From a virus (lineage: Duplodnaviria > Heunggongvirae > Uroviricota > Caudoviricetes), in IMG/VR virus record IMGVR_UViG_2537561935_000012: a stretch of DNA of 64,000 nucleotides. One strand, 5' to 3'. The notes beneath the pieces were generated by a model that saw only the letters and a list, made by a program, of their open reading frames with translations, was not told the DNA's origin and searched no databases. Within the stretch, counting starts at the first letter, position 1. Each line of letters begins with the position of its first letter. This document shows, in pieces, positions 39,354 through 42,781 of this stretch. The position numbers and the translations under genes were made by a program.

Positions 39354-39677
39354 ATTGAATACAAACCCAGTGCTGCCGCCATCACAATTCCTACCGTTGC
39401 GAATGCTTCAGGCCAGCTCATTATCTCACCTCCAGTCTCCATACCGCCTGACCAATCCGGCTGGCATGGGTATCTTTGGATACTGTTCCATCTTTAGCCA
39501 TCTCCATAAGAATTTTGCGCAAATCTGCCGAACGCCATTCTTCATCAGGAAATTCCTTCTCCATTGCCAACCGCAGATTCCAGGTTGCCATCCTGAATGG
39601 ATATTCCCCGCCGAGAGCTTTATCTTGCAGGGCAGCCCGGGAACGCATCACCTGCAAAACCTTCTCTTTTACATCCA

Positions 39678-40481
39678 TCATTTCGCCTCCTGCGGCGGTT
39701 CTGGTAGCGGCATCCAGTACAAGGCGTTCCCTAACCACGATAAAGTGCCGTCGCTCAACTCCACGTATTCCCCTTGTACCTGTCCTGCCATATACTCGCC
39801 GTGCTTTGAATAAATTAAAATCCAATCATCTTGAGCGGGCATTCGCTCACTACAGCTTATCCAACCATCCGGAGTTACCGGATAGTTGCCATTCACAAGG
39901 TCAGCTCGAACATATAGCGTGTCATCATGGTGCTGATTGTGGCTGCACCACGTTAATTCGCTTAACTCGCCATCTTCTGGCCATACTCCAGCTGTTTGCA
40001 GCCAGATATGGGCTGGCGCATCTTGGCAAGGTGTATTAACTGGCAACTTGTAAGTTTGGCTTACAGGTTGGCTACCCTGAAGCATGGCAGCGTGGCAGGC
40101 ATCCTCAACGTTCTTCACTGCATCTGCGCAGTAGTTATAGCGATTGCATTCCACTAATTTCTGCTTGAGGTTTTCAATTGCTAACTCGATTTCATCCGGC
40201 ACTACCGGCTCTGGTTGGATAGTGACGTTGGCAAAGGCAGCACGCAAACCGGCCTTAATTTCCTCTACTTCATCAGCGCCTAGCGATGAATCTGACAATG
40301 CGTGATGGAATGCGTAAGCCATGTCGTCGTTTACTGCAACCGGTTCTGCTTCCAGCGATGCCAGAGCAATTCGTGCCAGTTCTTCCGCTTCTTCTGCTGG
40401 CAGTACAACGTTGCTACCAGGTCCGTATGTTTCGCGCCACTGCTTGATTGTCAGCAGTCGCTCTTTGGTAATAGTGATCAT
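39678..40481 (-). CDS. Hypothetical protein with DUF551-like C-terminus
   Basis: 267 aa ending ...ALYWMPLPEPPQEAK, resembling the WxPLPxPP tail of DUF551 phage proteins. Confidence 0.4.
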   Translation of the reverse strand: MITITKERLLTIKQWRETYGPGSNVVLPAEEAEELARIALASLEAEPVAVNDDMAYAFHHALSDSSLGADEVEEIKAGLRAAFANVTIQPEPVVPDEIELAIENLKQKLVECNRYNYCADAVKNVEDACHAAMLQGSQPVSQTYKLPVNTPCQDAPAHIWLQTAGVWPEDGELSELTWCSHNQHHDDTLYVRADLVNGNYPVTPDGWISCSERMPAQDDWILIYSKHGEYMAGQVQGEYVELSDGTLSWLGNALYWMPLPEPPQEAK

Positions 40482-40993
40482 GCCGCGTTTCCTTCTTTCT
40501 TATTAACAATTACACCGTCATATATTTCATTAAGGTGCCCTCTCAACTCCATGCGCCTTAATGCAGATAACATGTAATCGCATTCAACCTGCTTATTTCC
40601 AGTAAATGGCTTATCGTCAGGATTACCCCAACAGCAATTACCCTTGGGCCACCCATGTACTTTCCGTACTCTTCCGTTAACAACGTGAAGTAATCCCCAG
40701 CCAGGTGGTAAATCCTCAACTGAAATAATTCCCGGCTCACTAATAAAGAATCGCCAGTCGCCCATTCCAAGAGATGGATTTTTACGAAAACGCTTTTTTC
40801 TATCTGCCAACAAGTCAGCACGAGAACACTTCGCCTCTATCAGGCATGATGCTGAATTTCTGAATCCCATAGCATCTGGCTGTTCTCCGGTACTGGTTAC
40901 AGCTATAAAGCGGTCATGAAAACAAACCTTGAACCCGTTGCGCTTAAGGAACTTATACGCAATCTGACAGAGTTCGCGGTGTGTTAACGCCAT
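40478..40993 (-). CDS. PD-(D/E)xK-fold nuclease-like protein
   Basis: Start ATG 40993 (AAGGAGAG RBS, overlaps upstream small ORF stop); motif QPD ... LIEAKCSRAD consistent with PD-x(n)-E-x-K. Confidence 0.4.
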   Translation of the reverse strand: MALTHRELCQIAYKFLKRNGFKVCFHDRFIAVTSTGEQPDAMGFRNSASCLIEAKCSRADLLADRKKRFRKNPSLGMGDWRFFISEPGIISVEDLPPGWGLLHVVNGRVRKVHGWPKGNCCWGNPDDKPFTGNKQVECDYMLSALRRMELRGHLNEIYDGVIVNKKEGNAA

Positions 40994-40994
40994 A

Positions 40995-41183
40995 TCACTC
41001 TCCTTTAGTGCGCAAGTGGTTTTTCCAGCGGTTTTGCGCCGCGCTGGGCTTTTTGCAAAAACCACAATCCATCATCCCGTAATATTTCATCAACCCCATC
41101 CGTCGGTTGCTGAGTCTCACCCACTGCCAGACGCCAGGAGCGTTTCTACGAACTAACAGAATCTTTGCTTTACGGTTTTTCAT
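40995..41183 (-). CDS. Small basic protein, paralogue 2 (MKNRKAK family)
   Basis: 62-aa ORF in track; shares N-terminal MKNRKAK and internal QNR-K motif with adjacent unlisted ORF. Confidence 0.35.
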   Translation of the reverse strand: MKNRKAKILLVRRNAPGVWQWVRLSNRRMGLMKYYGMMDCGFCKKPSAAQNRWKNHLRTKGE

Positions 41184-41191
41184 CTTACAGC

Positions 41192-41362
41192 GTACCCTTT
41201 CTTCCGCCTGTTCTGTGACGCAGTAGGCTTACGCTTTGCGGCAAAAGCCACCTGACCAAATGGATGGAGTACCGCTATCTTATGGTTGCTAATAACCAGC
41301 TCCACCACACGCACAGGTCGCTGTAAAAAAAGTCGTTTTGCCTTACGGTTTTTCATCGCTTT
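41192..41362 (-). CDS. Small basic protein, paralogue 1 (MKNRKAK family)
   Basis: About 56 aa, below the track length cut-off; ATG preceded by the same CTTTACGGTTTTTCAT context as paralogue 2. Confidence 0.3.
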
Positions 41363-41528
41363 GCTCTCCTGCGTCTCTTTGCTGCTCGTCGTGCCGCTGC
41401 AATACCGGTATGGCGGCGCTTTGGTGCCGGGATGATGTTGTCAGCCATCAGGACATACGGCTTTGCAATTAGCGCAGAAGCCCAAAAACGAGTCGGGTAC
41501 GGTAACAAGCCGATACATGCCACACGCA

Positions 41529-42149
41529 TTACTCACCTCCTTTGATGCGAATGCCAGCGGCGCGTGGCACATTAACTTCCACGATGCGCACAGTTGGTTT
41601 GTACATCTCAATCGCAGTCAGCCAGTCAGCGCCAGTCATGCGCTTTTCTGCATCGCCATTAGTCCACTTAACCGGTACACCAATAGCCTTCATCGCGATT
41701 TCTATTTCCCCGGCAATGGCGCTTTTTCCGCAACCAGTAAAACCAGATACAACGACCAGAACTTCACCTTTGGCTGGTTTTATTCCCCGCGCTTCCAGTT
41801 CTGCTATGCGCTTACTTCCATCCGAGATAACACCTTCGTAATACTCACGCTGCTCGTTGAGTTTTGATTTTGCCAACTCCAGTTGTTTTGTTAGTTCCGC
41901 AATACGGCAAACATCGTTGATACGCGTTTCCTCTAATGCGTTGATCTCATCCAGTAGTGCCAGCACGGTTTCTGGTCCGGCCAGAAATTTGAAGGCGTTG
42001 AGGGCATCAATATCAACACCGCTATCTTTAAGTTCCTGTTCGCTTATCAGAGCATCATCAACTGGCAACATTAACAGGCGTTCCATTGCCGGAATTGCAC
42101 GCTCTGCCGCCTCACGCAGTGCCTGATAGTCAATTGTCATTCTCGCCAT
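41529..42149 (-). CDS. Ead/Ea22-like prophage protein
   Basis: 206 aa with coiled-coil core and C-terminal Gly-rich nucleotide-binding-like segment typical of Ead/Ea22 family. Confidence 0.45.
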   Translation of the reverse strand: MARMTIDYQALREAAERAIPAMERLLMLPVDDALISEQELKDSGVDIDALNAFKFLAGPETVLALLDEINALEETRINDVCRIAELTKQLELAKSKLNEQREYYEGVISDGSKRIAELEARGIKPAKGEVLVVVSGFTGCGKSAIAGEIEIAMKAIGVPVKWTNGDAEKRMTGADWLTAIEMYKPTVRIVEVNVPRAAGIRIKGGE

Positions 42150-42781
42150 CCTTCACAGTTGTAATCACTACAGCCTTCAAAATCATATGGGCTGTACTGC
42201 CAGGTTATTTTTCCGCAATGCGGACAATTCCAACGCACCTTCCCGCTTCGCGACTTCTTTCTTCTGTTCTGCTCTTTCAACCAGTCAGGCATGACCAAAC
42301 CTGCGCCCTGAACCATTGTTCTGCGGTTAAAGTTATTGATATTGAACGTCCGACGCTTTGCTGCATCAGCAATGGAAAATGGCAACCAAACTATTCCTGG
42401 TTCGTTTTTGTTGGCGACGCTAAAGATGGTCGCTTTACTGAAGTCATCTGTTGGCAATCCACCGTGTTGAAGCCAGTAAACATCGTTGCCGTTCCAGCTA
42501 CCTTTTTTGTAGGCCACATACGCAGTGCAATCTGACTCAATCAGGCTTTCTGTGGGGATGTACTGGCAATCAACGTGCCACACAGCCATTGCATCCACGC
42601 TATCAGCGCAAACAGGCTGATCGATATCTCGTCCACAATTCCAGGCTTTTTGGGCTTCTTCCAGCGTGTAAACATGAGCGCGATCGATATCAGAACTGTA
42701 ACCATTGCCGTTATGGCAATGGAATGAGGCGTTATTACCCACAGTTTCACGCAAGCACATCATGTAAAAGCGGTTATTCAC
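42137..42781 (-). CDS. Hypothetical Cys-rich protein
   Basis: 214-aa ORF with CPHCG zinc-ribbon-like motif. Confidence 0.35.
   Translation of the reverse strand: MNNRFYMMCLRETVGNNASFHCHNGNGYSSDIDRAHVYTLEEAQKAWNCGRDIDQPVCADSVDAMAVWHVDCQYIPTESLIESDCTAYVAYKKGSWNGNDVYWLQHGGLPTDDFSKATIFSVANKNEPGIVWLPFSIADAAKRRTFNINNFNRRTMVQGAGLVMPDWLKEQNRRKKSRSGKVRWNCPHCGKITWQYSPYDFEGCSDYNCEGWRE

Follow-up and report, generated by a model that had tools for sequence, protein, structure and literature searches.

The genes that follow ea22 in Shiga-toxin (Stx) phages vary in number and kind, include duplications and are uncharacterised (PMC8614690). In the Stx phage Min27, an ea22-like gene and xis flank the gene pMIN27_09, a member of the family described here, and exo, orf60a, orf63 and orf61 lie upstream of it. 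The exo-xis region, in which the family described here resides, influences the lysis-lysogeny decision. On a broader scale, short conserved boundary sequences have been proposed to mediate the mosaicism of lambdoid phages, a concept that is cited in PMC3029335.

The present analysis concerns two small genes, B and C, in the window, which is the whole 64,000-nucleotide stretch of phage DNA that was analysed. B and C are probably tandem, coupled basic accessory genes that belong to a fixed exo-xis-type cassette and are carried here by a P1-like phage-plasmid.

Organization of the gene cluster

The 22 kb that surround the cluster (positions 30000-52000) are 96-99% identical to the P1-like phage-plasmids SJ46, RCS47 and JL22 and to P1 variants. 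This backbone contains pacA/pacB, pmgS and tail genes together with a block of lambdoid exo-xis-type accessory genes. In SJ46, the A-B-C-D segment is absent at the corresponding place. The A-B-C-D block is shared with lambdoid Stx prophages, and a 1.3-kb region around the family has matches in 1599 of the 5426 complete E. coli genomes. In lambda itself, no unit of this family lies between ea22 and ea8.5.

The genes form a stop-to-start chain on the minus strand, which runs from an Ea22-like gene through A, B, C and D to a DUF551 gene. The features are as follows.

41529..42149, minus strand: Ea22-like gene, 206 aa, directly upstream of A
41353..41529, minus strand: ORF A, 58 aa, hydrophobic N-terminal half and Arg-rich tail GIAAARRAAKRRRRAKR
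41180..41356, minus strand: ORF B, 58 aa, starts MKNRKAKRLFLQ, internal tail KPTASQNRRKKGYAVR
40995..41183, minus strand: ORF C, 62 aa, starts MKNRKAKILLVRR, terminal tail KPSAAQNRWKNHLRTKGE
40991..41006, minus strand: terminal junction between C and D, AAAGGAGAG-TGA-T-ATG
40478..40993, minus strand: ORF D, 171 aa counted from its ATG, PD-(D/E)xK fold
39678..40481, minus strand: DUF551 gene, 267 aa, downstream of D
41164..41184, plus strand: direct-repeat copy 1, 21 nt, reverse complement of the C start
41337..41357, plus strand: direct-repeat copy 2, 21 nt, reverse complement of the B start, 95% identical to copy 1

The A/B, B/C and D/DUF551 junctions all have the form ATGA, in which the stop codon of the first gene overlaps the start of the next. 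The C/D junction is built differently. The Shine-Dalgarno sequence for D sits within the last codons of C and is followed by the C stop, a single base and the D start. The initial annotation had reported two small ORFs at 40995-41362, both of which are present on the minus strand with 58 and 62 aa, and had described the second as overlapping the start of a nuclease gene in a TGAtATG arrangement. The TGAtATG is found, but C and D do not overlap; they abut, separated by a single base. Absent from that annotation is a third small basic ORF, A (41353..41529), which is coupled upstream in like manner.

A 12-nt inverted repeat (41016-41027 / 41054-41065, 92% complementary, 26 nt apart) lies towards the 3' end of the C coding sequence, shortly before the Shine-Dalgarno sequence of D, and could conceivably form a hairpin in the mRNA. 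The stretch 39500-42500 gave no match when it was scanned for Rfam families, promoters and terminators.

The MKNRKAK-unit family

Comparison of the two proteins, which are 37% identical across 54 residues (BLASTP, E=5e-10), confirmed the earlier proposal that B and C are true tandem paralogues. Both genes begin with ATGAAAAACCGTAA[A/G]G, and both products carry the motifs MKNRKAK, SN[RH][RK] and KPxAxQNRxK, including the MKNRKAK and KxKPxAxQNR-K motifs on which the paralogy had originally been based. The common start context that had been noticed was likewise found. The string ATGAAAAACCGTAAAG is exact at C, has one mismatch at B, and is matched twice in the 64 kb, against 0.03 matches expected by chance; on the plus strand it appears as the 21-nt direct repeat, the two copies of which are 173 nt apart.

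Both proteins match the profile phrog_1380, C with E=1e-40 (profile positions 1-62/62) and B with E=6.5e-23 (positions 1-60/62). C corresponds to RefSeq WP_000797279.1. B has no PGAP annotation in the loci L001 and L002; at least 1000 contigs encode the identical B protein, and both NCBI and UniRef have a name for it. A word-indexed search placed the family in 61 clusters, every one of which comes from (prophage) sequences of Escherichia or Salmonella. When 1.84 billion representatives were searched exhaustively with a profile HMM, only 48 proteins were retrieved, all small phage ORFs, and the MKNRKAK units were tied to no known family. The most distant of these 48 retain M[KN]NRKA[KR], [RK][IV]SN[RH][RK] and SAAQNRWKNH, and the three motifs of PHROG 1380, M[KN]NRKA[KR], [RK][IV]SN[RH][RK] and SAAQNR[WR]K, are found as invariant columns of the alignment. 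The MKNRKAK-unit family (PHROG 1380) comprises strongly basic proteins of 58-64 aa confined to phages of the Escherichia/Salmonella group. A literature search with the peptide motif of B and C found no match, and none of A-D had a significant match in Pfam, NCBIfam or PADLOC.

In two further PHROG profiles, phrog_9263 (230 aa) and phrog_12350 (155 aa), a unit is joined to D or to an upstream segment. Their probable source is mis-called or frameshifted annotation of phage genes, and automated annotation that relies on them could be misdirected.

The description of B and C as highly basic mini-proteins holds: B has a net charge of +15 and a pI of 12.0, and C a net charge of +14 and a pI of 11.3. 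In an AlphaFold2 model of C, built with a 16-sequence family alignment, three strands and a C-terminal helix follow a disordered N-terminus; the model is of low confidence (pLDDT 62). A Foldseek search of the PDB with this model found no significant neighbour. Since the best match reached only E=0.35 and shared a chemokine-like topology only, no fold is given to C. Several look-alikes were rejected. A C2H2 zinc finger (zf-C2H2_jaz in C, E=0.096) fails the cut-off, and the idea was dropped for lack of conserved Cys residues in B and the other types. The likenesses to CsrA, to ribosomal protein bS21 and to lambda Orf55 had hhalign probabilities of 0.2%, 0.2% and 3%, respectively.

Selection on the coding frame

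Codon use was analysed in 165 phage loci with family members, which yielded 90 distinct DNA alleles and 67 proteins. Conservation of the coding frame versus the DNA repeat across relatives had been set beforehand as a check, and it is the frame that is conserved in the 90 alleles. Residues that are invariant across these alleles use several synonymous codons. R59 is encoded by CGC, AGG, AGA or CGA, S26 by AGC, AGT or TCA, R28 by six Arg codons and Q57 by two; N58 is almost always AAC. Inside the 21-nt repeat, K5 (AAA/AAG), A6 (GCA/GCT) and K7 (AAG/AAA) show third-position changes only.

Nei-Gojobori (NG86) estimates summed over 11 sequence types put pN/pS at 0.10 in the N-terminal motif and at 0.30 in the C-terminal one; in the unit centre it is 0.67, a saturated value. 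In the C-terminal motif, C and type T6 differ at all synonymous sites (pS=1.0), and pN is 0.07. The MKNRKAK frame has a pN/pS of 0.24-0.60 and no stops. In either of the other two frames, these blocks are interrupted by stop codons and have ratios of 1.0-1.6. Between B and the B2 type, pS is 0.72 and pN 0.24, which corresponds to a dN/dS of about 0.12, and the core dN/dS of the closer type pairs is 0.12-0.35. Conservation of the tail is confounded by the ribosome-binding site of the next gene, which is embedded there. The unit centre is weakly constrained between types, and the rare database variants P0054 and P0060 read it in another frame. The MKNRKAK frame is open in 221 units, few of which are truncated. 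At the level of sequence, these comparisons show B and C to be protein-coding genes under purifying selection with a conserved frame.

Unit arrays and their junctions

The 165 phage loci carry arrays of one to three units. Locus L131 (IMGVR_UViG_3300008491_000015) is the sole one seen with three uninterrupted tandem units, which are, in order, a B-type unit, a C-type core with an internal tail and a type-2 terminal unit. Another locus, L035, also has three units, with 742 nt between the last two.

The order of the cassette is kept: an Ea22-like gene, ORF A, one to three MKNRKAK units and one variable downstream gene. The end of a unit corresponds to what comes after it. The internal tail ...QNRRKKGYAVR is followed by another unit through an ATGA overlap in 65 of 65 cases, and the terminal tail ...QNRWKNHLRTKGE by a non-unit gene in 156 of 156. 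The DNA of the tail QNRWKNHLRTKGE provides the next gene with both its ribosome-binding site and its TGA-N-ATG junction. One and the same core (e.g. ILLVRRNAPGVWQWV...) occurs with either tail. The terminal junction AAAGGAGAG-TGA-N-ATG precedes at least 10 unrelated downstream genes. The most frequent of these encodes a 69-71-aa Cys-rich protein; the others include D, a DUF4014 membrane protein, an HNH endonuclease and several DUF551 proteins. As in a boundary sequence, the junction ACTAAAGGAGAGTGATATG stands ahead of many different genes, and the 5' junction GCAGGAGAGCAAA[AG]CGATG is conserved too. C and T5 have termini that are identical in DNA and cores with a pS of about 0.5.

Hybrid proteins are present in the databases. 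In P0259, a unit runs into the C-terminal third of D at the microhomology KDKP/DDKP; in P0035, the N-terminal half of a unit is fused to DUF4014; and in P0276, an unrelated N-terminal part carries the terminal tail AAQNRWKNYLRTKGE. These hybrids show that recombination takes place in and around the conserved unit ends; that it occurs at these particular termini is inferred.

The same junctions give rise to the main alternative to B and C as functional proteins, which is that the units are mainly 'linker' ORFs for translational coupling or recombination, the peptide of which has little or no function. Their translation would bring ribosomes to the gene downstream, and their conserved ends would favour the exchange of modules. 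In favour of such linkers are the stereotyped junctions with a Shine-Dalgarno sequence embedded in the tail, the tail type dictated by the following gene, the A-rich start (ATGAAAAAC), the weak constraint on the core between types and the occurrence of frame-shifted core variants. The protein is, however, constrained away from the junctions. SN[RH][RK] is kept with up to six Arg codons, the KP-S-A-A-Q-N-R stretch is kept with R59 in four synonymous codons and Q57 in two, the core dN/dS is low (0.12-0.35) in the closer type pairs, and all three motifs are retained in distant members. The linker explanation is considered unlikely.

ORF A

ORF A matches phrog_13831 (E=1e-41) and belongs to a family in which the hydrophobic N-terminal half varies and the Arg-rich tail is conserved. 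In 79 of the 79 assessable viral loci that were retrieved with A, the stop of A overlaps an MKNRKAK unit at its start, and units are also found without A. The linkage of A to the units is tighter than that of the units to D; as the loci analysed are mostly close relatives, it may partly reflect recent common descent. The A tail AAARRAAKRRRRAKR and the QNRWK helix of the units presumably recall the arginine-rich-motif RNA-binding peptides of the lambda N / P22 N type. Homology searches gave no support for this resemblance, and neither a boxB-like RNA nor an Rfam match was found.

A more far-reaching explanation would treat A and the units together as a 'docking cassette', the conserved, protein-coding junctions of which would be a socket for accessory genes that works by recombination and translational coupling, with basic proteins that bind the polycistronic mRNA or the ribosome. 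Lambdoid and P1-like phages would plug nucleases, HNH and membrane proteins into this socket, and the basic proteins would control the expression of whichever gene comes downstream. This explanation is improbable.

Gene D and the proposed link to a nuclease

D has an alpha-beta-beta-beta-alpha-beta core with the D...(D/E)xK residues of the PD-(D/E)xK superfamily, and its residues D40...E53-x-K55 are invariant. The assignment in the initial annotation was correct: D is a genuine PD-(D/E)xK-fold protein, with putative nuclease activity. No Pfam or NCBIfam model matches D, and a sequence search of the PDB found no match. RefSeq/PGAP gives D as a frameshifted pseudogene and lists a protein of 111 aa, WP_157794728.1, separately. 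In the window, in L001 (3708-4223) and in L002 (3572-3750), the ORF is intact. The 'frameshifted' label was therefore rejected; it looks like a systematic annotation artefact.

It had been suggested that B and C regulate the downstream nuclease. In its general form, this explanation makes them dedicated regulators, inhibitors or DNA-targeting subunits of D, and it starts from the adjacency and the TGAtATG coupling of C and D in the window. D also ranks second in frequency among the downstream genes (43 of about 150 loci), and phrog_9263 (230 aa) spans C and D as one protein. The distribution of the genes speaks against it. The identical unit with the identical junction stands ahead of at least 10 unrelated genes. 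Homologues of D are found across Enterobacterales and beyond, and in 22 genomes of other genera, which include Enterobacter, Citrobacter, Kluyvera, Serratia-group and Shewanella, no unit lies within 4 kb of them. The best E-value of the unit HMM in six-frame translations of these 22 loci is 0.08, and D there usually comes directly after an Ea22-like gene. Nor was a natural in-frame fusion of C and D, as hinted at by phrog_9263, found among the 12 longer D homologues inspected of the 120 listed; their extensions are out-of-frame upstream starts or fusions to other genes. A dedicated two-gene system with D, whether regulator/nuclease or toxin/antitoxin-like, was rejected, the conserved co-occurrence of the two genes being absent.

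Given D without units in 22 genomes, and units before at least 10 other genes, functional coupling to the nuclease is not supported, and a dedicated partnership with D is very unlikely. Across the loci compared, D in this window is shown to behave as one of at least 10 interchangeable downstream ('cargo') genes that can follow the units.

The status of B and of the direct repeat

B could in principle be a decaying, non-functional duplicate of C. It is missing from the RefSeq annotation of L001 and L002, about half of the loci are without it, and two loci have a frameshifted B of 22 aa. Nevertheless, where an array contains B-type units, these are nearly always intact, the comparison of B with B2 gives an omega of about 0.12 (pS 0.72, pN 0.24), and the protein is found on at least 1000 contigs with names in NCBI and UniRef. 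Decay of B is accordingly given very little weight, and B is treated as a gene in its own right.

The least probable explanation, which may be practically dismissed, is that the repeat matters as DNA, as an iteron-like or protein-binding element, and that the ORFs in it are a by-product: the 21-nt direct repeat does occur twice, 173 nt apart, and the termini are more conserved than the core at the DNA level, but there are two copies only, the changes within the repeat fall at the synonymous positions of K5, A6 and K7, the pN/pS signal is specific to the coding frame, and the frame is open in 221 units with few truncated, which is the opposite of a repeat that is kept while the frame is broken. 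The iteron-like alternative that had been offered earlier was discarded on the same synonymous-codon evidence and on copy number. Iterons and origin repeats usually comprise at least three close copies of about 17-22 bp by a replication gene, as against two copies 173 nt apart here, and no replication gene or origin context was found near the repeat, the flanking genes being Ea22-like and DUF551. Synonymous-codon variation together with the frame-specific pN/pS thus identifies B and C as genes and not as an iteron-like element.

Proposed role of the units

In the preferred explanation, the genes of the cassette would be transcribed as one polycistronic early transcript and translated by coupling. 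The conserved 5' and 3' ends of the units would serve as short homologous boundary sequences, at which homologous recombination would give rise to duplicate units and to the exchange of cores and of downstream genes. Each unit is predicted to consist of a basic disordered N-terminus, a small beta-sheet with the SNRR motif and a basic C-terminal helix with QNR. B and C may act on nucleic acid or on a nucleic-acid-handling host machine; binding of nucleic acid by the proteins themselves, suggested by their charge (+14/+15) and their NR-containing motifs, is put forward tentatively. They would be host- or phage-modulating factors like the other exo-xis proteins, and not dedicated regulators of D.

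Units of this family are common in E. coli and present in Shiga-toxin phages, and their annotation is inconsistent. B is often missed, and the intact neighbour D is labelled a frameshifted pseudogene. With the units recognized as real, selected genes, the annotation of both B and D is corrected. The unit junctions appear as a hotspot for the exchange of downstream genes, and hence as a defined place to look for accessory functions. These results do not reveal a new mechanism; what they improve somewhat is the description of the small accessory genes that temperate enterobacterial phages carry in their mosaic early region.

Comparison with known systems

The closest described relative of the units is phrog_1380 (WP_000797279.1; pMIN27_09 of phage Min27). 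C matches it over the full length without difference, and its position after an ea22-like gene in Stx phages is also alike; B is a divergent sub-type with an internal tail. For D, and for D only, the known comparison is with PDB 3DNX (SPO1766) and the PD-(D/E)xK restriction-endonuclease-like proteins.

The small exo-xis proteins of lambda and the Stx phages (Orf60a, Orf63, Orf61, Orf73, Ea8.5 and Orf55) share the neighbourhood and the early-left operon with the units. Like the units, they are small, non-essential accessory proteins, and the genes after ea22 in this region are variable and partly duplicated (PMC8614690), as are the units. A sequence relationship between these proteins and the units is absent.

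The third comparison is with the lambdoid boundary sequences, a concept cited in PMC3029335. Both they and the unit ends are short conserved sequences at gene junctions with unrelated sequence beyond, and in the units, too, identical termini would enclose cores, or precede downstream genes, that have been exchanged. Unlike those boundary sequences, the unit ends lie within coding sequence and are also conserved as protein.
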